A stretch of 64,000 nt of DNA from Candidatus Dojkabacteria bacterium (GTDB lineage: Bacteria > Patescibacteriota > Dojkabacteria > GCA-002793355): contig CP129470.1 of NCBI GenBank assembly GCA_030583685.1, positions 635,412 through 699,411 of the forward strand. Direction: 5' to 3'. Positions 44,724 to 53,668 of the stretch are shown here, piece after piece. Below the pieces are notes generated by a model that searched no databases, was not told the origin of the DNA, and worked only from the letters and a program-made list of their open reading frames with translations. Made by a program: the position numbers and the translations under genes. The stretch's first letter is position 1. Each line of letters opens with the position of its first letter.

Positions 44724-45155
44724 ATGACACAACCACTTGCTATGAAACAGGTTCAAGAACAATTACTCCGTTATCAATCAGATTTGCAACATATTCCGGT
44801 ATCGGATCGCGATACCGTTGATCAGCAATTTTTCGCAATAGGCAAAAAATTGCTCTCCCTCTTCCCTCAGTTTACCTCCTCAGACCTTCCAACGCTCACG
44901 CAGTTGCTGGCCAGTTGGTATACACTCGTGTTGCAGCGCCTTCATACCGAAGCAGTTTCAGGAAATCAAGAGCTAGCCTATGCGTATGTGTTGCACTTGC
45001 TTGAGCAACCACCACTGACGGTGCAAGAAATGAAAGAACAAGTACCCTTGGCAATTAACGGAATTATCGCGTCATACCGCACAAAAGACTGGCACCGCCT
45101 TCTTTCTGGATTAGGAAGGGTGAGAGGGGGAATAGGTGAGGGTGGTGATGAATAA
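44724..45155 (+). CDS. hypothetical protein
   Basis: 143-aa ORF divergent from the wHTH/P-loop operon. The intergenic region carries a GTCCAAAG direct repeat and an AT-rich -10-like box. Confidence 0.4.
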   Translation: MTQPLAMKQVQEQLLRYQSDLQHIPVSDRDTVDQQFFAIGKKLLSLFPQFTSSDLPTLTQLLASWYTLVLQRLHTEAVSGNQELAYAYVLHLLEQPPLTVQEMKEQVPLAINGIIASYRTKDWHRLLSGLGRVRGGIGEGGDE

Positions 45156-45283
45156 GGAATTCCTTCGTTGCACTTCAAGGGAGCCTTTGTTGGTTAATGT
45201 GAGGAAGTGACGGATGTTACCCATGTTTTTGGAGAGATTATTATAAAAGTAGATTGTAGACACACATAAACAAAGACGGTACA

Positions 45284-47299
45284 ATGTTGATTATGGATGT
45301 TGCAGCTTTTGGAAATATTTCCAAAAAAAAAATAAAAATAAGTCAACGTAGGTACCTTGGGAGTAAGTCTAAGTTACTAGAATTCATTGAAGATATTCTT
45401 AAGAAAGAAAGTGTTGAATACAAGGTTTTTGCGGACATATTTGGTGGCTCTGGCGTCGTCGCTCATCACTTCTACGGGAGGGCAGATATTATTGTAAATG
45501 ACATTCTCAAGTCTAACTACCTTGCATACGTTGCATACTTTGGAAAAGGTCGAGTTCGCCAATTTTATATTGATAAAAAGATTGAAGAGTATAATGCTCT
45601 AGATTCTAAGAATATAACGGAAAATTATTTTTCAATAAATTTTGCTAATACCTATTTTGATCGTGAGAACTCCCTAAAAGCTGGTGCTATTCGAGATGAC
45701 ATTGAATTACAGTATACAAGCGGGTTTATTAATAATAGGGAACGAGCCTATTTAATTACGTCGCTGATATATGCACTTGATAGAATTGCTAACACGGTTG
45801 GTCATTATGACGCCTATAGACAAGTAACTATACCGAAACGCCCCTTGATTCTAAATCATTTAGAACTCAAAGTATGTAAGTCAAAAAGCTGGATTTACAA
45901 CATGGATGCGAACAATCTTGTAAAACTGATCAAACCAGATGTCATATATATTGACCCCCCATATAATTCTAGGCAATATTCGGACTCTTATCATCTACTG
46001 GAAAATATAGCTGAATGGAAGAAAGAGCCAGTATATGGAGTTGCAAGAAAAATTAACCGCTCTCACCTCAAAAGTAAATATTGTCTTAAGATTGCCGGGG
46101 AAACTTTTAGCGATTTGATTGATAAGATCGACGCAAAATACATTCTTGTTTCGTACAACGATATGGGAAAGAATGGAGATAACCGGTCTCAATCTCGAAT
46201 CACTGATCATGAAATCATTTCTGCGCTAGAACGATGTGGTGATGTTAAGATTTATGAAAAATCTTATAAACAATTCACTACAGGTCGATCGTCAAAGAAG
46301 GATCTTAGTGAAAGAATCTTTTTTTGCAGAGTCGGCAAAAGTCCACAAAAAAGGAGGTTACAGGTTTTCGTATCTAAAGGTGATGAGAGGAGAGAATTTA
46401 TAAAGTCTCCACTAAATTATACAGGTGGTAAATATAAATTACTTCCACAGATAACAAAATTTTTTCCAGATGAAATTGAAACATTTTATGATGTGTTTTG
46501 CGGTGGGGCGAATGTCGGGATAAATGTAAATTGTAAAAATGTAGTATGTATTGATAAGGATAGTCATGTAATAGATTTGCATCATTTAATTTCAACTGTT
46601 AACTTTGATGAGTTACATCAAAATATTCTTGCAATTATAGATCGATTTGGTTTGAGTCATAGTTTTGTGAATGGTTACGAGGTGTATGGCACTGAAAGTT
46701 CTAAAGGTCTGGGGCAGTACAATAAAGATAAATATTTATTGCTACGAGCAGAATATAATAAGATGGAGCAGTCTAATGAGAAAACACTTCTACTACTTGT
46801 ATTAATTATATATGCATTTAACAATCAAATACGCTTTAATTCAAAAGGTGACTTCAATTTGCCTGTAGGAAAGCGTGATTATAACGGTAGCTTACGCAGA
46901 AATCTTGCTGCATTTAACCGGGCAGCTATGGAAAAAGTAATTAAATTTCAGGTTGCTGATTTTAAGGATATACTCAAAATGCCCCTTATAGAAAAAGATT
47001 TTGTCTATCTGGATCCTCCATATTTACTTGGACTTGCTTCGTATAATGAAAATGGTAGATGGAATGAAAATCATGAGAAAAAACTATATTGGGTTCTCGA
47101 TAAGCTCAATAAACGTGGAATTCGGTTTGCTTTGTCTAACGTTATAGAACATAAGGGTACCTCAAACAAAATTCTTAAAAAATGGATTGAAAGTCGTGGG
47201 TATAGACTGAATGAGTTAGACTTTCACTACAATAACTCTAACTATCAGTCGAAGGCGAAATTTGACAGTTCGCTTGAGGTGCTCATTACAAATTACTAA
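45284..47299 (+). CDS. type IIS restriction-modification methyltransferase: fusion of two Dam-like (D12 class) N6-adenine DNA methyltransferase domains
   Basis: Two complete MTase modules, each with a DPPY motif (YIDPPYNSRQY; YLDPPYLLGLASY), plus N-terminal SAM-binding regions (FADIFGGSG; DVFCGGANVG). 671 aa. Strongly AT-rich. TACAAT overlaps the first ATG, so the real start is probably the ATG at about 45293. Confidence 0.8.
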   Translation: MLIMDVAAFGNISKKKIKISQRRYLGSKSKLLEFIEDILKKESVEYKVFADIFGGSGVVAHHFYGRADIIVNDILKSNYLAYVAYFGKGRVRQFYIDKKIEEYNALDSKNITENYFSINFANTYFDRENSLKAGAIRDDIELQYTSGFINNRERAYLITSLIYALDRIANTVGHYDAYRQVTIPKRPLILNHLELKVCKSKSWIYNMDANNLVKLIKPDVIYIDPPYNSRQYSDSYHLLENIAEWKKEPVYGVARKINRSHLKSKYCLKIAGETFSDLIDKIDAKYILVSYNDMGKNGDNRSQSRITDHEIISALERCGDVKIYEKSYKQFTTGRSSKKDLSERIFFCRVGKSPQKRRLQVFVSKGDERREFIKSPLNYTGGKYKLLPQITKFFPDEIETFYDVFCGGANVGINVNCKNVVCIDKDSHVIDLHHLISTVNFDELHQNILAIIDRFGLSHSFVNGYEVYGTESSKGLGQYNKDKYLLLRAEYNKMEQSNEKTLLLLVLIIYAFNNQIRFNSKGDFNLPVGKRDYNGSLRRNLAAFNRAAMEKVIKFQVADFKDILKMPLIEKDFVYLDPPYLLGLASYNENGRWNENHEKKLYWVLDKLNKRGIRFALSNVIEHKGTSNKILKKWIESRGYRLNELDFHYNNSNYQSKAKFDSSLEVLITNY

Positions 47300-47304
47300 T
47301 TAGT

Positions 47305-47313
47305 TGATATAAT
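47305..47313 (+). promoter_or_regulatory. extended -10 TGATATAAT immediately upstream of the restriction endonuclease gene (ATG at 47322)
   Basis: Read directly. Gives the REase its own promoter at the 3' end of the MTase gene. Confidence 0.5.
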
Positions 47314-47321
47314 TACAAATA

Positions 47322-49115
47322 ATGGCTGAAGTATGGAGTTTTAACACAACCATCCGAAATCCTGAACGTCTAGAGTCGCTACTCAGAATCCTGTCCGACA
47401 TGGAGGGAGTGATCTTCGATGCACAAGGTCAAGAGCTCTTTTTTAGTTTGCAAATAAAGAAACGGTTTTACAAACCTAGTAGGAGTACTTTGGGAGAAGA
47501 ATTAGCGTCCGCAGTTTTTGATTCCGAGCAAAATGAAGAACTTGATGATAGTGTCGTTAGTAGTATTCTGGACCAATATAGAGGAAACGTCGATAGTGCT
47601 GGTCGTGGGCGAACCTCAGTTGCTGTTCTTAATAGATTTGGATTGAGTATTGCCCTTCAATCTCATGGTCCCGTAATTATTACGCCTTTAGGTAAGAAAT
47701 GGCTTAGCGGCGAAATTGATGATGAGGAACTTTTTACGCGTTTTCTGTTAAGATGGCAGTATCCGAACCCGATTGAAAGTGGGTATACCAATTACGATAT
47801 TAAACCTTTTCCAGCTGTGCTGCAGCTTATTAATGAAGTTAACATAAAATGGAAGGCTGCTGGTAATAATCCCGTAGGTATATCAAAAGATGAATATCGA
47901 CTTTTTGCATTATCATTACATCGGCAAAGTGATATTGTAAGTGCAGCAGAACAAATAATCGAACTCAGAAGGTGTGTCAACACTTTAGTTGGAACCGAGC
48001 GTTCAGATTATATAAATAGATTTACACAACAGCGTGTTATTGGGATTTTTGGTGACACAAATGATGAGCCGATTAGGAAACACATTAGTAATCTAAAAGA
48101 TTACACTGACTCATCTCTACGGTACTTTAGAACATCGGGCTTGATTACACTGCGTGGTGCGGGTCGGTATATAGACATTGCTGTTGATAAAAAAGTAGAG
48201 GTAGATAGTATTCTTAACGACGTTTCCTTAGAGTCAATTGGCTTTACTGAAGCTGCAGATTATCTTGCTTATCTCGGTGATTTATCCTATGAATTACCGT
48301 GGCAAAATGAGGAAGATCTACAGAGGATTAGCGAAAATCTTATGTCCGTTCTTGAATCTGAAGTCCAAGAAACTACGATTGAATTTGATTCTTCAACGAT
48401 CCACAACAAGACTCTTCCACAGAAAGTTAGTATACTCAAAGGCAGAATCAATCAGGTACGTATAGAAAAACTTCGATCACTTAAGCATGACTTAGAAGTA
48501 CTCGATGAAGCAATAGAGAAGTTGTCGAGTATTACTAGCCCAAGGTACGAAATCATAACATCCCGTCCATCTCTCGATTTAGAGTGGTATGTTTCAAGAG
48601 CGCTTATGGTTATCAATGATGCCATTAGAATTGACCCAAGTTTCAAGGTGGGGGATGACGGAGTACCAACTGGTTTTAGGGGTAAAATCTCTGATATTGA
48701 GTGTGAATATACGTCATTTGGATTGACGGTGGAGGTGACACTAATTAAGGGCCGAGACCAATGGTACGCAGAAGGACAGCCTGTTATGAGACACCTAAGA
48801 GATTTTGAAGACACTTTGCCTGAAGGCAAGGAAGCGTACTGTGTGTTTATTGCCCCTCATATTCACCGTGATACGTTAAATCAATTCTGGACTAGTAATA
48901 AATACGAATTTGAAGGAAGGCGGCAGAAAATTATACCTATTTCGATTGGTGAGTTTGTAGACTTCTTGCACAAAGCTCGTGAAATGATTCAATCGAGTAC
49001 TCTGGACCATAGTGCACTAAGAGAACTACTTAACAATATAACTTTATCAGTCGATACTTATTCTGACTCAATCGAGTGGCAAAGCAATATACATAATACT
49101 ATCTTAGGTTGGTAG
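47322..49115 (+). CDS. AlwI/PleI/MlyI/N.BstNBI-family type IIS restriction endonuclease
   Basis: 597 aa, the same size class as N.BstNBI/PleI. Motifs recalled from that family: FLLRWQYPNP (compare KWQYPS), SLRYFRTSGLITLRG (compare TRYFRYTGLFVARG), YCVFIAPHIHRDT (compare YCLFIAPEINKNT). Paired with a tandem-Dam MTase, as for GAGTC/GGATC type IIS systems. Confidence 0.7.
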   Translation: MAEVWSFNTTIRNPERLESLLRILSDMEGVIFDAQGQELFFSLQIKKRFYKPSRSTLGEELASAVFDSEQNEELDDSVVSSILDQYRGNVDSAGRGRTSVAVLNRFGLSIALQSHGPVIITPLGKKWLSGEIDDEELFTRFLLRWQYPNPIESGYTNYDIKPFPAVLQLINEVNIKWKAAGNNPVGISKDEYRLFALSLHRQSDIVSAAEQIIELRRCVNTLVGTERSDYINRFTQQRVIGIFGDTNDEPIRKHISNLKDYTDSSLRYFRTSGLITLRGAGRYIDIAVDKKVEVDSILNDVSLESIGFTEAADYLAYLGDLSYELPWQNEEDLQRISENLMSVLESEVQETTIEFDSSTIHNKTLPQKVSILKGRINQVRIEKLRSLKHDLEVLDEAIEKLSSITSPRYEIITSRPSLDLEWYVSRALMVINDAIRIDPSFKVGDDGVPTGFRGKISDIECEYTSFGLTVEVTLIKGRDQWYAEGQPVMRHLRDFEDTLPEGKEAYCVFIAPHIHRDTLNQFWTSNKYEFEGRRQKIIPISIGEFVDFLHKAREMIQSSTLDHSALRELLNNITLSVDTYSDSIEWQSNIHNTILGW

Positions 49116-49142
49116 CTAATGATTGGGGAATGATAGCATTTA

Positions 49143-49814
49143 TTAAGATTTGAATATTCGATTGAAGTAAAATCGTTTGAACAATTGCAAAATATTATGG
49201 TGTTTTTTCGCAATTTTTGAATGAGATCGTTGCATTCGATTTAGAATAAAGCTTAAAGAAGTTTTTGTTTGTTCTTCTCCAAATTTTGTTGCAAATGTTG
49301 ATACACCTTCCTCTTTATCGAACTTGATATCCATGAGATCATCTAATAGCTGGCGTAGTAGAAAGTAGTCGGCAATATAGTTTAAATCCTTAAATGAAAG
49401 TTGACTATTTGCTTTTTTTATCAAATTTGTTAGTGGTCGATGTCTATTAGTAATTGAAAGCAGTGTATCTCTTTTTACATTGTGAATCTCGAAGTAATCA
49501 CTCATTTTGTACAGCTCCCAGATAGAAATGATTTTCTCTGTTTGTATTGGGCTATCAGTGTAGTTAATAAAGATTAGTGTATCTGTAAAAATAGTATCGT
49601 AAATAGCATTTGGTCTTAAATTTTTGGAAATTGTGTTAAGACACCTGAGGTATGACCGGAGGTTAGGGTCGTTATTCGTTATTTCAAATGTTTTATAATA
49701 TTTAGTCAAAAAAACGCAATGATACAACGAGGGAAACTTTTTAGTCGAAAAAAATAAATACAAGAAAAGCGAGATACTGTTTGTAAGTAAAGTTTTTGTA
49801 ATTATGGATTCCAA
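49143..49814 (-). CDS. hypothetical protein in the AT-rich island. Contains a UbiA-like Asp-rich segment, but the protein is not strongly hydrophobic
   Basis: QLLDDLMDIKFDKEEGVSTFATKFG resembles the UbiA second motif (DDDLKIGIKSTAILFG), but there are no 8-9 TM helices and the protein is only 223 aa. Very AT-rich codon usage. Confidence 0.35.
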   Translation of the reverse strand: MESIITKTLLTNSISLFLYLFFSTKKFPSLYHCVFLTKYYKTFEITNNDPNLRSYLRCLNTISKNLRPNAIYDTIFTDTLIFINYTDSPIQTEKIISIWELYKMSDYFEIHNVKRDTLLSITNRHRPLTNLIKKANSQLSFKDLNYIADYFLLRQLLDDLMDIKFDKEEGVSTFATKFGEEQTKTSLSFILNRMQRSHSKIAKKHHNILQLFKRFYFNRIFKS

Positions 49815-50030
49815 GGCAGTTTGACTTTACTCAATAATGGTACGATAAACTCTACAACTTGATTGAATATTTCCATGAAGCTATGGTGAGCCATTTTTAT
49901 TAGAAAGTCAAGACCACATGTTTGTTGCACGACTTACAGTCTCTTTGAAAGTTCAAGCTATAGATACAGACAATCCATGAAAAAGATTGTATGGCTTCGT
50001 GAGCTGAATTATATGAGAGTATAATAATGA

Positions 50031-50972
50031 ATGGTAAAAAGGAGTAATGATACAAAGTCTCGTATGAACGTTGACTTGTTTAGCGATATAAAAATTGTCG
50101 ACGATGGGTGTTATTTAAAATTGCCTAATTTAAATTCAGACAAATATAGGACATATGATCCTGAGTATATCGTTACAGGTATGATAAAAACTAGAAGAAG
50201 AAAGATTAATGAATTATGGAAAGTTTTCAGAGGAACGCAGGATAACGATTTTTTGAATCAGTACAAATACGATAAAAATTTCTCTTCACGGATGTGGGAA
50301 ATGTATATTGGAGTTATATTGCTTAATAATGGTTGTAAGATTAATGCTAAAAATAACTCTCATTTAGATTTCTTTGTAAATGATTCTTTCTACATAGAAT
50401 GTGTATACCCTCAAAATGCAAACTGTCAAGATAAGCCTGACTATGTTAAGCCGTTGCTTAGGAAAAATAATATCACCGAAAGACCTGAAGAGAGTTTCAA
50501 AACAAGAATTACAAGTTCCATTGCAGATAAGTATAGAAAATACCGGGAAAAGTTAGAGAATGGTAGTGTCAATGAAAATGTGCCCTATGTACTTGCAATA
50601 AATACTGCTTTTAGGGATATGCCCGATGGGATTGTCCATTCTTTATTATTTGGGTATGGCAATACCCAAATCTTATACCAGCGTGATAAATCAGATTTTG
50701 GTACAAAAGTGGTTGCCTATGACAAGGAGAGTATATCTTATATCCTCAAAAGTTTCTGTAAAAAGGTTACAATTGGATACTTTGAGAACAATGAATTTGA
50801 CGGAATAAGTGCAGTCATTTGTTGTAATAATCATATTATTAATTCATCAAAAGAACCTGGCGCAGATTGTTATATAATACGGAATCCATATGCAAAAAAT
50901 GTATTGTGTAACCAAATTAATTTCATTTCAGAAATTTACAGAGAAGATAACTTTGATGGTATATTCTGGTAA
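50031..50972 (+). CDS. hypothetical protein (313 aa) in the AT-rich island
   Basis: Long AT-rich ORF with TATAAT about 5 nt upstream of the ATG (leaderless-type). No motif. Its position next to the R-M system suggests a defence or mobile-element cargo role. Confidence 0.5.
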   Translation: MVKRSNDTKSRMNVDLFSDIKIVDDGCYLKLPNLNSDKYRTYDPEYIVTGMIKTRRRKINELWKVFRGTQDNDFLNQYKYDKNFSSRMWEMYIGVILLNNGCKINAKNNSHLDFFVNDSFYIECVYPQNANCQDKPDYVKPLLRKNNITERPEESFKTRITSSIADKYRKYREKLENGSVNENVPYVLAINTAFRDMPDGIVHSLLFGYGNTQILYQRDKSDFGTKVVAYDKESISYILKSFCKKVTIGYFENNEFDGISAVICCNNHIINSSKEPGADCYIIRNPYAKNVLCNQINFISEIYREDNFDGIFW

Positions 50973-51043
50973 CAATATCAAGATGTATAGTGAATCAAAA
51001 AATGCTATATGTTTGGTCTATCGATATATGCATATTGAAGTTT

Positions 51044-53668
51044 TTACCCCTCATTCACCACCTTCTTTAACTGTTCTACCAGCAGGAGGGCTTGGAGGGG
51101 GGTGAGGTTGTTTGGGTCGACGTCTGAGAGTAATTCCTTGACTCGTTTACTTTGCTCGCTTTCAATGGTGCGTGGGGTAGAAAAGAGGTCGAGTTGCGAG
51201 TCGTTTGTTTCCTTGGAGCGTGCGGGTTGTCTAGGAACGGTTAATTCCTTCCCTTCTACGGACAGGGCTCTGGTTTCAAAGGAATTGAGCACCTCAAAGG
51301 CGGTATCGATAATTTCCTTGGGTAAATTGACCAGTTTTGCAACCTGAATACCATAGCTTTTATCACTTCTGCCTCGAGTAATGGTGTGCAAGAAATAAAT
51401 GGTATCGTTTTCCTCTTTCAAGTTGACCTTGTAGTTGATAAATTTCTGGGATAACTCCTCTAAATCGGTTAACTCACGAAAATGTGTGGTGAATATGGTG
51501 GTGCAGCCAATTTTATGGGCAAGATACTGTGCAATGCCCCAGGCAAGCGAAATTCCTTCGTAGGTGCTGGTGCCTCGGCCAACTTCGTCAAGAATGACCA
51601 AAGAATGTGGCGTTGCCTGTGATACGATATAGGCAACCTCCGAAAGTTCAACCATAAAGGTGCTTTTTCCCGTAGAAATATCGTCTGATGCACCAATTCG
51701 CGCAAAGACTTTGTCGACCAAGGGAAGTGTCGCTCGTTCAACGGGAATATACGAACCGATTTGTGCCATAATCTGTAAGAGTGCAATCTGGCGAACGAAT
51801 GTTGATTTTCCTCCCATGTTTGGTCCAGTCAAAATCAAGAAGTTGCTGTCTTGGGTGATTTCCAAATCATTCGCGACAAATTCGGAGACAGTGTTTTCAA
51901 CAACGGGGTGGCGCATGCCGGTTATCTGCATGGTTCTTTCGGTTGTGGTAAGGGTTGGTCGCGTGTAGCGTTTAGTCAACGCTGAAGTCGCAAAACTGGT
52001 TAAAACATCAACAGTTGCGACCATTCTGCCGAGTGCAACCAATTCAGGAATATACTCCTGCAGTTCAGAAATAAGTGCTTTATACAATTCCGCCTCAAGA
52101 AGCTGCATATTGTCCCGTGCTGACAGTACTTGTGCCTCAAGTTGTTTTAGTTCTTCGGTAATATATCGCTCTGTGTTCACCAGCGTCTGTTTTTTTATAA
52201 AATGCGCCGGTGCGTTGGCACTTTGTATACGGGATAATTCGAAGGAATACCCAAAAATATTGTTAAAACTGAGTTTTAAGCCGGGAAGATCGTGGGATAC
52301 TTTCTCTTTTTGGTAAAGGTCTTGAATGTACCGTTCACCATTTGTTGACAGTTCGACCAATTTGTCCAATTCTTGATTGTGTCCCATAGAGACGAAGGTC
52401 GGGCGGTCTCCGTTATCTGATAGTATATTTCGGACTTTTGCGATGAACGCTGATAATTTTATCTTTTGTGTTTTTTCGATTTTTGGGATTGCGGGTAATT
52501 TTTCATGGAGCACAGTAAGTGAAATTCCTTTTTCGACTGCATCCGCCAGTGCGAGTACTTGTCGAAAATGAATTCGTCCGAGACCAAGTGCGCTGGTCAA
52601 TCGCTGGATATCAGGGTAGCGTTGCAACAGGTTTCGAGTCTCTTGATAATGACTGCTGTTTCGTGTATAATGCTCAACTGTATCGTATCTACGGCCCAAT
52701 TCTTCAGGGTCCGTTAACGGAAAGGAAAGCCACTCATACAAGAGGCGGTGACCGGGCGCTGTTTGTGTCTGGTCAAGTATTCCGAGGAGCGATCCTTCAA
52801 GACGATGTGTCTTGAGGTTGTAAAAAAGTTCTAAATTTCTCTGAGTGGTTGGGTCAATCTGGAGTGTATGTCTTAGATTAAAATACTCGAGGGTGGTAAT
52901 GTGTTTTGGTTCAGTTTTTTTTGTTTCTGCAAAATATGTGAGTAAAACGCCGGAGGCTATAGTTGCAAGGGGGTATTCAGAGAGTCCCAGTGGGTCTAGA
53001 TTGGGTACACTAAAGTGAGACAGGAGCGTTTTGGTACTTTTTTCTAAAGAAAATTCTTTATCCTCTAGTGGCTGGATAACCATTCGGTCATGTTTTCGAT
53101 ACTGATATCCATCTTTCATCGACTTTAAGAGCTCTTTGATTCCTAATTGTTCCAAAATATCATCAATCTCTTCGTGATTCTTGGTGACATTTCCTTCATA
53201 CACCTTAAATTCACCGGTTGAAATGTCTGCAAACGCAAGTCCAAACTTTTGTGGAGTGGTCACAATACAGGCAATATAATTCTTGTTTTGCGAGAGTAAT
53301 TCTTCTTGTGTTGCGATGGTCCCTTGGGTAATAACTTCAGTTACCGCACGCTTCACAATACCTTTTGCATTTTTTGGGTTTTCCATTTGACGGGCAACGG
53401 CCACTTTTAGCCCTGCGGCAATGAGCTTTGGTAGATACTCATCAAGCGCTTTTTGTGGGAAGCCCGCCATCGGTGGTGCTTTTTCATCTTTTGACCGACT
53501 GGTCAGCACAATGCCAAGCACTTCGGAAACTTTGACCGCGTCGTCGTAGAAACATTCAAAAAAGTCTCCCATTTGAAAAAGTAAGAGGGCATCTGGATAT
53601 TCCGCCTTGATGGCAGCGTATTGCGCCATCAGTGGCTTAGTTTCGGTCATATGGGAATTGTAACACAT
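51044..53668 (-). CDS. mutS: DNA mismatch repair protein MutS
   Basis: N-terminus MTETKPLMAQYAAIKAEYPDALLLFQMGDFFECFYDDA (mismatch-binding domain). Walker A GPNMGGKSTF. MutS domain V (ILDEVGRGTSTYEG). 874 aa. Confidence 0.95.
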   Translation of the reverse strand: MCYNSHMTETKPLMAQYAAIKAEYPDALLLFQMGDFFECFYDDAVKVSEVLGIVLTSRSKDEKAPPMAGFPQKALDEYLPKLIAAGLKVAVARQMENPKNAKGIVKRAVTEVITQGTIATQEELLSQNKNYIACIVTTPQKFGLAFADISTGEFKVYEGNVTKNHEEIDDILEQLGIKELLKSMKDGYQYRKHDRMVIQPLEDKEFSLEKSTKTLLSHFSVPNLDPLGLSEYPLATIASGVLLTYFAETKKTEPKHITTLEYFNLRHTLQIDPTTQRNLELFYNLKTHRLEGSLLGILDQTQTAPGHRLLYEWLSFPLTDPEELGRRYDTVEHYTRNSSHYQETRNLLQRYPDIQRLTSALGLGRIHFRQVLALADAVEKGISLTVLHEKLPAIPKIEKTQKIKLSAFIAKVRNILSDNGDRPTFVSMGHNQELDKLVELSTNGERYIQDLYQKEKVSHDLPGLKLSFNNIFGYSFELSRIQSANAPAHFIKKQTLVNTERYITEELKQLEAQVLSARDNMQLLEAELYKALISELQEYIPELVALGRMVATVDVLTSFATSALTKRYTRPTLTTTERTMQITGMRHPVVENTVSEFVANDLEITQDSNFLILTGPNMGGKSTFVRQIALLQIMAQIGSYIPVERATLPLVDKVFARIGASDDISTGKSTFMVELSEVAYIVSQATPHSLVILDEVGRGTSTYEGISLAWGIAQYLAHKIGCTTIFTTHFRELTDLEELSQKFINYKVNLKEENDTIYFLHTITRGRSDKSYGIQVAKLVNLPKEIIDTAFEVLNSFETRALSVEGKELTVPRQPARSKETNDSQLDLFSTPRTIESEQSKRVKELLSDVDPNNLTPLQALLLVEQLKKVVNEG

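Follow-up and report, generated by a model that had tools for sequence, protein, structure and literature searches.

PD-T7-1 and PD-T7-5 are anti-phage systems, each consisting of a single coding sequence described as a nuclease, that were recovered by functional selection against phage T7 in Escherichia coli (Vassallo et al. 2022, PMC9519451). Cloned on its own, with no accompanying methylase, either gene confers protection on E. coli, and restriction-modification (R-M) was considered an unlikely explanation for both (PMC9519451). A review gives both as PD-(D/E)xK nucleases (PMC10952713), and published HHpred comparisons of PD-T7-1 yielded weak matches to Hjc, PDDEXK_5, FokI_C, Vsr and RmuC over the same core that is discussed below (PMC9519451). 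Here we compare with these systems a gene for a 313-amino-acid (aa) protein from a Candidatus Dojkabacteria bacterium (assembly GCA_030583685.1, contig CP129470.1), together with a divergently oriented open reading frame (ORF) of 223 codons beside it. Both lie in a 64,000-nucleotide stretch of that contig (positions 635,412 to 699,411; hereafter the window, in whose numbering all coordinates are given). A preliminary description, drawn from the DNA letters and an ORF list, had placed two divergent, very AT-rich genes between an R-M system and mutS, and the coordinates and the AT-richness (GC 0.302 and 0.316) are borne out. It had also proposed the pair as candidates for an undescribed defence component. 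Our analysis makes it probable, taken as a whole, that the locus combines a defence nuclease from a separate branch of the PD-T7-1/PD-T7-5 superfamily with an unrelated orphan ORF in a mosaic island. The 313-aa gene would encode a stand-alone, metal-dependent nuclease of the PD-(D/E)xK fold, which would cleave nucleic acid (DNA or tRNA) during infection as an anti-phage effector and may form a second line of defence beside the adjacent R-M system. The region itself would be the distal part of a horizontally acquired, low-GC mosaic island holding two unrelated items.

The relationship to the described systems was detected with profiles. The 313-aa protein matches the PADLOC model for PD-T7-5 (PDLC04110) at E=1.1e-18 and 65.5 bits, with residues 69-263 aligned to profile positions 41-231 of 346, and the model for PD-T7-1 (PDLC04073) at E=1.7e-11, over profile positions 138-344 of 452; in PHROGs it matches phrog_8571 (E=1.8e-21). 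The PADLOC check suggested in the preliminary description thus succeeded for this protein and returned nothing for the 223-aa translation. An exhaustive phmmer search of 1.84 billion cluster representatives found 708 relatives at E<=1e-3, of which 206 reach E<=1e-10; almost all are about 280-320 aa long, and the closest (P0002) is 45% identical. A word-indexed protein-cluster search returned only the 313-aa protein itself, and tblastn against phage genomes gave no match, although phrog_8571 does. Both PADLOC models are matched by 60/60 aligned family members. Genuine PD-T7-5 proteins, found by tblastn in an Acinetobacter baumannii record of the plasmid collection and on a Nostoc plasmid, cover the whole PADLOC profile (1-341) at 7e-124 and 2e-115, respectively, and a genuine PD-T7-1 protein (P0197) scores 6e-136 on the PADLOC profile, whereas on the PADLOC profile values of just 1e-13 to 1e-28, over the core only, are reached by the 313-aa protein and its close relatives; near full-length coverage of the PD-T7-5 profile is therefore not attained by the 313-aa protein. 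Because the match is limited to the core, we file the protein under the superfamily and under neither family. In a joint alignment its identity to the PD-T7-1 and PD-T7-5 reference proteins is 17-23%. These comparisons indicate that the protein belongs to a PD-T7-1/PD-T7-5 superfamily and, within it, to a distinct third branch that is a member of neither named family. The branch consists of proteins of about 300 aa, mostly from Patescibacteria.

The likeness to PD-T7-5 (E. coli UMB0934, RRM82777.1) extends to several features: a single polypeptide, a W-E helix, a (P)D motif, a hydrophobic-E strand, a helix lysine and a C-terminal N-P-x-A motif, as well as the prediction as a PD-(D/E)xK nuclease and the occurrence in defence and mobile contexts. 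In contrast, identity is 21-23%, the N- and C-terminal regions differ, and PD-T7-5 has an insert of about 40 residues before the N-P-x-A motif that the 313-aa protein does not share. The hosts also differ, with Patescibacteria for the present branch and Proteobacteria or Cyanobacteria for PD-T7-5, and habitual embedding in R-M operons distinguishes the branch from PD-T7-5. PD-T7-1 (E. coli ECOR46, RCQ85672.1) has the core domain in common with the 313-aa protein, at 17% identity, but is longer at its N-terminus by a domain of about 110 residues, which the latter lacks.

Residue conservation and structural prediction both point to a nuclease core. F74, F84, W89, E90, D113, E123, R159, K167 and N285 are invariant in the 60-sequence alignment, and the 313-aa protein keeps all of them; when PD-T7-1 and PD-T7-5 are added, the invariant set comprises D71, F84, W89, E90, D113, K167, F251, S260, N285, P286 and A288. 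The N-P-x-A motif beginning at N285 is thus common to the 313-aa protein, its branch, PD-T7-5 and PD-T7-1. The strand glutamate in the PD-T7-1 and PD-T7-5 rows (CIEAT and ALEAT) stands two columns away from E123 (YIECV), which would most simply be an alignment shift. An AlphaFold2 model computed from the alignment (predicted local distance difference test, pLDDT, 88.6; predicted template modelling score, pTM, 0.88) places a helix at residues 84-99, carrying W89-E90, a strand at 114-116 right after D113, a second strand at 120-125 with E123, a long helix at 153-176 with R159 and K167, and a further strand at 186-191. This predicted order fits the alpha-beta-beta-alpha-beta core expected of the PD-(D/E)xK fold. 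In the predicted model the positions of E90, D113 and E123 agree with the PD-(D/E)xK layout, in which an alpha-beta-beta-beta-alpha-beta core has an acidic residue at the head of one strand and (D/E)xK in the following one, but the motif reads E-C-V; the lysine is presumably supplied by K167 of the next helix. The model predicts a restriction-endonuclease-like core, the conserved residues include an acidic and basic constellation typical of PD-(D/E)xK active sites, and the preliminary description's statement that the protein has no recognisable motif gives way to an E...D...ExV...K signature of PD-(D/E)xK type, alongside the PADLOC and PHROGs matches.

Structural similarity of the model to solved restriction-endonuclease-like proteins is present, with PspGI, BsoBI and FokI among the weak matches. 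The best structural match is the CdiA-CT toxin domain of Burkholderia pseudomallei 1026b (4g6v_A), at 11-16% identity and a score below clear homology; the 313-aa protein has neither a CdiA delivery context nor an immunity gene, and relative to 4g6v_A it is extended by helical regions at the N-terminus and beta regions at the C-terminus. A fold search of BFVD gave no significant viral match for the model.

To place the branch in its genomic context, GTDB representative genomes were scanned for patterns with a tight sub-alignment, which identified 40 loci, 37 of them usable for ORF calling; neighbouring genes were clustered, and the two nearest on each side were scanned against Pfam. The same scan with the single 313-aa protein as query found nothing. 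The hosts of the 40 loci are overwhelmingly Patescibacteria, comprising Paceibacteria, Parcubacteria, Moranii-, Peregrini-, Sacchari-, Dojka-, Andersen-, Falkow- and Nomurabacteria. Genes of type I M/S type lie upstream on the same strand in 10/37 loci and HsdR-like genes occur in 8/37; in two type I loci the homolog sits between hsdS and hsdR. A triad of an M.EcoRI-like methyltransferase, a GmrSD_N/HNH (DUF262-HNH) gene and the homolog recurs in 4/37 loci (L012, L015, L019, L028). This triad, found in four Patescibacteria genomes, varies in gene order and is sometimes preceded by a C-protein-like helix-turn-helix (HTH) gene; L006, L008 and L009 also belong to this observation. Three loci with precomputed Pfam labels show the arrangements HTH - M.EcoRI-like - homolog - GmrSD_N/HNH, M.EcoRI-like - AAA_15/21 - GmrSD_N/HNH - homolog, and HTH - type IIG N6_Mtase/Eco57I - homolog - Methylase_S - HARE-HTH/PDDEXK_5. 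Scattered among the remaining neighbours are UvrD-type helicases, Fic, Schlafen/AlbA_2, ImmA/IrrE-HTH, YafQ/RelB, a C5-methylase, AAA_13 and serine recombinases. On the short contig of P0002 the upstream gene is on the same strand and overlapping, not divergent. Overall, of about 36 independent loci, at least 15-16 lie inside R-M operons, a raw count uncorrected for background.

The linkage extends to gene fusion. Two relatives, P0011 (690 aa) and P0041 (722 aa), are HsdS::homolog fusions that contain an entire type I specificity subunit. The two share 38% identity from end to end and a conserved linker, and the fusion is thus an evolved architecture and not an accident of gene calling. P0011 (L067, 1532-3604) lies in a type I operon with the order x - HsdS::nuclease - 145aa - HsdR - PDDEXK_1, and L044 reads hsdM - x - hsdS - small P-loop kinase - homolog - hsdR. 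The kinase gene of L044 (7510-7974) encodes a 154-aa AAA_33 protein, immediately precedes the homolog and lies with it between hsdS and hsdR; a further homolog, P0096, carries a C-terminal P-loop kinase domain of PRK/thymidylate-kinase-like type. The branch is thus found overwhelmingly in R-M and defence contexts, with strong physical linkage that includes fusion. The 313-aa gene itself falls in no metabolic family, and the R-M and defence surroundings of its relatives are the opposite of the non-defence contexts that would have spoken against the preliminary suggestion of a defence role. That the 313-aa protein is a metal-dependent nuclease contributing to phage defence is, on these sequence comparisons, likely.

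The same contexts raise the question of whether the protein is a type II restriction endonuclease, conventional or auxiliary, that relies for self-protection on a methyltransferase, here the double Dam-like enzyme of the island, in which case two nucleases in the island would be served by one methylase. Several relatives do stand directly after a methyltransferase, in a C-protein/methyltransferase/homolog order resembling a C-M-R operon; M.EcoRI-like methyltransferases co-occur with the homolog in the four triad loci, and the restriction-endonuclease-like fold with its weak PspGI, BsoBI and FokI matches is as this explanation would have it. However, many relatives have no methyltransferase nearby, their neighbours being a release factor, a helicase or Bro-N, or their loci holding no R-M gene. 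Moreover, PD-T7-1 and PD-T7-5 are active as single genes without a methylase (PMC9519451), the AlwI cassette of this island occurs in more than 10 loci without such a gene, and in the type I loci a cognate HsdR is already present. We regard this alternative as improbable.

A second possibility concerns how a defence nuclease of this branch relates to R-M complexes. PrrC, the ABC-ATPase-like anticodon nuclease of the EcoprrI (prr) locus, is a restriction-linked effector embedded in a type I R-M locus. The branch resembles it in having an extra nuclease gene among hsdM, hsdS and hsdR (L044, L048, L067), a position that, by analogy, suggests functional coupling to the R-M complex. The two differ in that no sequence or fold relationship links them and that the neighbour of the 313-aa gene is of type IIS, not type I; latency and activation by anti-restriction factors in the PrrC manner would be pure analogy for this branch. 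Docking onto R-M complexes is suggested because of the conserved HsdS::nuclease fusions and the position between hsdS and hsdR, and the branch as a whole might be a restriction-linked module that docks in this way and serves as a fail-safe, fired once a phage's anti-restriction proteins have put the R-M system out of action; we consider this unlikely. If it were true, the module would here guard an AlwI-type IIS system, and it would hint at how the T7-selected PD-T7-1 and PD-T7-5 sense infection. More speculative still, the 223-codon orphan might supply such a module with a new, host-specific accessory. For the 313-aa protein itself, cooperation with the R-M system next to it, or a backup role, draws on the same analogy and is doubtful.

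The adjacent mutS and the Dam-like methylase also invite the thought that the 313-aa nuclease is an accessory of mismatch repair, akin to MutH or Vsr. It matches no MutH or Vsr family in Pfam or NCBIfam, its gene lies 12 GC points under mutS and is hence foreign, and a MutS homolog was found in 0/51 loci of relatives, which are embedded in R-M operons instead. The absence of conserved mutS linkage effectively refutes a MutH/Vsr-type repair role, to which we give almost no weight.

Several observations weigh against the assignment of the 313-aa gene as a defence nuclease. Pfam and NCBIfam contain no match for the protein, including no nuclease model. Its support amounts to about 20% identity over some 190 core residues, with the nuclease and defence properties both taken from homology, and our literature search found no account of the mechanism of PD-T7-1 or PD-T7-5. 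The canonical (D/E)xK lysine is a valine (ECV) in this protein, and K167 or R159 may have a catalytic role. Finally, about half of the relatives' loci have no recognisable R-M gene nearby, again an uncorrected count. Two further points, taken up below, bear on the orphan status of the 223-codon ORF.

This second ORF differs in kind from its neighbour. Its stop-free run of 227 codons is longer than in any of 2000 shuffled versions of the region (mean 67, maximum 198), and a codon-usage score against the island genes is positive in this frame only. Nevertheless, calling the frame a gene is uncertain. The first 103 codons contain no ATG; neither TTG chosen by gene callers (49814, 49763) is preceded by a -10-like hexamer or a Shine-Dalgarno (SD) motif; the only ATG with an SD-like GGAG, at 49505, would give 120 aa; and TATCAT stands 9 nt before a TTG at codon 36. 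Gene callers disagree: one assembly has a 206-aa call, and another, whose DNA is 100% identical to the window, has one of 120 aa. An N-terminal extension by frameshift was considered and rejected, the other two upstream frames being full of stops. The composition is also odd, with G at 14% of first codon positions against 26-31% in neighbouring genes, and with 0.9% Gly and 4.4% Gly, Ala and Val together in the translation. On the minus strand, positions 50008-50037 match a sigma-70-like promoter at 10/12 (TTACCA, an 18-nt spacer, TATAAT); this match overlaps the start of the 313-aa gene and faces the orphan ORF, whose leader would then be about 190 nt long. The region holds 8 promoter-like sites, no more than its shuffles do (11.5).

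No relatives of this ORF were recovered. The 223-aa translation has no match at threshold in Pfam or NCBIfam, none in PADLOC or PHROGs, none by word-indexed search of 5.8 billion protein clusters, and no PDB chain at E<=10; tblastn against plasmids and pattern scans of metagenome and viral contigs were empty, as were exact-sequence look-ups of the 206-aa and 223-aa forms, and no ORF223-like sequence is present in any fetched locus. A single-sequence AlphaFold2 model reaches a pLDDT of 40 and is unusable. The preliminary description had noted an Asp-rich segment resembling the second motif of UbiA prenyltransferases. The resemblance exists: about 30 residues fit the second Asp-rich motif as DxxDxxxDxxxGxxTxxxxxG, the segment DDLMDIKFDKEEGVSTFATKFG matches Pfam UbiA (PF01040) at E=0.053, and four NCBIfam models of UbiA-type prenyltransferases match at E=0.02-0.14, all on the same approximately 30 residues. 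It falls short, however, of the UbiA family, with 13.2 bits against a cut-off of 34.2, the rest of the ORF unmatched, and the first motif, NDxxDxxxD, absent from the translation, in which the only N-D occurs in NDPNL. The maximum KD-19 value is 1.50 (residues 4-22), below 1.6, and the observation that the protein has no transmembrane character is thus upheld. Identity as a UbiA prenyltransferase was rejected on the sub-threshold score, the lack of transmembrane helices (7-9 are needed) and the missing first Asp-rich motif. Some AlwI/BspD6I-type enzymes are known to have a small catalytic subunit (ss.BspD6I); this identity was likewise rejected, there being no PDB match and no conserved small ORF downstream in 13 loci.

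The ORF could in principle be a genuine, expressed, lineage-specific defence protein, such as an abortive-infection (Abi)-like ORFan, whose Asp-rich DDxxD / DxxxDxxxG segment could bind a diphosphate-metal ligand. The frame is far beyond chance length and alone has positive codon usage, it lies in a defence island by an R-M system and a putative defence nuclease, and its Asp-rich motif matches UbiA motif 2 at E of about 0.02-0.05 in two libraries. Those scores are sub-threshold, though, and the matches of the two libraries are not independent; the lack of relatives and of a PADLOC match, the absence of an ATG for 103 codons, the absence of a promoter or SD at TTG 49814 or 49763 and the odd composition all speak against it, and it seems unlikely to us. 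Less likely still is that the divergent pair forms a toxin-immunity or toxin-antitoxin unit, with the 313-aa nuclease, whose best structural match is the CdiA-CT toxin domain described above, as toxin and the 223-aa product as its neutralising partner. ORF223-like sequence stands beside relatives in 0/47 loci, neighbour clustering yields no conserved small partner, divergent transcription is atypical of toxin-antitoxin or CdiA-CdiI pairs, PD-T7-1 and PD-T7-5 work as single genes, and the ORF lacks a credible start. The 223-codon frame is most likely a lineage-specific orphan, a fast-evolving or decaying cargo gene and not a partner of the nuclease; nothing that we found ties it to nuclease or defence. 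Against its dismissal count the two points announced above: an open frame of 227 codons in DNA of 30% GC favours real or recently real coding, and the word-indexed search needs exact 5-residue words, so that a remote family could have escaped it.

Table 1. Features of the island and its surroundings (window coordinates)
Feature	Positions	Strand	Basis and remarks
Host-GC gene, 342 aa	42599-43627	-	just upstream of island
Host-GC gene, 335 aa	43629-44636	-	just upstream of island
Host-GC gene, 143 aa	44724-45155	+	just upstream of island
Low-GC mosaic island	45257-51043	.	from the 143-aa host gene to mutS; R-M cassette and two AT-rich ORFs
DNA methyltransferase, 671 aa, two fused D12-class (Dam-like) N6-adenine domains	45284-47299	+	modification half of AlwI-family cassette
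AlwI-family type IIS or nicking restriction endonuclease, 597 aa	47322-49115	+	Pfam RE_AlwI, PADLOC REase_II
Orphan ORF, 223 codons	49143-49814	-	TTG start; ORF list
Alternative calls of the 223-codon ORF	206 aa from TTG 49763; 120 aa from ATG 49505	-	gene callers
Asp-rich segment, residues 157-186, LLDDLMDIKFDKEEGVSTFATKFG	49257-49346	-	resembles UbiA motif 2
TATAAT hexamer, candidate -10 box (leaderless or very short-leader mRNA)	50020-50025	+	5 nt before ATG 50031
313-aa gene, PD-(D/E)xK-type nuclease-like	50031-50972	+	ATG start; ORF list
Conserved nuclease core, residues 84-191, predicted	50280-50603	+	invariant columns in 60 members; secondary-structure order
mutS	51044-53668	-	downstream, convergent with the 313-aa gene

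The setting of both ORFs is summarized in Table 1. GC contents are 0.302 for the 223-codon ORF, 0.316 for the 313-aa gene, 0.34 for the methyltransferase and 0.40 for the restriction endonuclease, against 0.43-0.46 for the flanking host genes, and the two AT-rich ORFs stand at 30-32% against a background of about 42%; given GC of 0.30-0.40 across about 45.26-51.04 kb, the stretch is compositionally foreign. The methyltransferase matches Pfam MethyltransfD12 (E=1.7e-61, in two stretches) and PADLOC MTase_II (E=4.5e-174), and the endonuclease matches Pfam RE_AlwI (E=9.8e-79), with REase_II, the type II nicking endonuclease model, as its best PADLOC hit (E=8e-129). The model of the SirC C-terminal domain (PF22440) hits residues 544-574, at the C-terminus of the endonuclease, below threshold (E=4.8e-5, 23.7 vs 27 bits). 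More than 10 metagenome loci (L053-L063) share the AlwI-type pair of methyltransferase and endonuclease genes as a conserved module, at 50-77% amino-acid identity, and nucleotide homology of these relatives to the window stops at about 48995, near the end of the endonuclease gene. No conserved third gene stands beside the AlwI cassettes, and neither AT-rich ORF is near them in the 13 related loci checked downstream of the endonuclease; conversely, the AlwI cassette was not found in the loci of relatives of the 313-aa protein. The cassette is a mobile two-gene module that travels without either AT-rich ORF, which, together with the absence of ORF223-like sequence from the relatives' loci, dissolves the pair that the preliminary description had treated as a unit. 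The island is thus a mosaic of an R-M cassette, an independently acquired nuclease gene and an orphan ORF. No tRNA and no integrase were found at the island, and direct or inverted repeats at its flanks are only chance-sized (13-30 nt at 73-93% identity). No "empty site" contig was recovered, the exact flanking proteins occurring only in the source sample.

Other contigs carry the same DNA. Contigs from runs DRR779146 (L004, window 45108-51085) and DRR779145 (L005, 48090-51085) match the island at 100% identity; the ends of L004 lie 42 nt (51085) and 176 nt (45108) past the outermost genes, and L005 shares the 51085 end, its other end lying inside the endonuclease gene. The exact flanking proteins, those of the 143-aa gene and MutS, were found only in SRR24881069. 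That contigs end at the island borders could reflect strain heterogeneity. The three host-GC genes upstream have no Pfam family in precomputed tables.

The 313-aa gene is separated from the divergent ORF by 216 bp. The leaderless-type promoter attributed to it previously is sustained by its upstream hexamer, an arrangement typical of this genome: in 11/40 long ORFs of the window, 4-12 nt separate an upstream -10-like hexamer from the ATG, against 3.9-8.7% at random positions (binomial p = 3e-7 to 5e-4), and an SD-like motif was seen in only 2/36 long ORFs of the window. Starts with a near -10 hexamer include those at 6683-, 17046+, 25557+, 42567-, 47322+ and 50031+. Leaderless or very short-leader mRNAs therefore seem common in this Dojkabacteria genome, judging from these motifs. 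An alternative in-frame ATG for the 313-aa gene, at 50064 (M12), agrees equally well with homolog N-termini.

Overall, the finding is a divergent variant of a described kind of defence gene next to an ORFan, and neither an undescribed system nor a functional pair. Of the defence candidates proposed earlier, the 313-aa gene stands, as a relative of a validated superfamily, whereas the qualification "undescribed" does not fit a distant variant of something described, and the 223-codon ORF drops out; that ORFan is of little importance unless expression data show it to be real. One "hypothetical protein" of Candidatus Dojkabacteria thereby becomes a credible defence nuclease, and a presumed two-gene unit proves not to be a system. 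Patescibacteria are small-genome episymbionts that are often said to be poor in defence systems. The PD-T7-1/PD-T7-5 superfamily, validated only in E. coli, has a large unannotated branch among them, and the wiring of that branch into R-M operons, together with its fusion to HsdS, offers a concrete lead on how stand-alone nucleases may be targeted or triggered.

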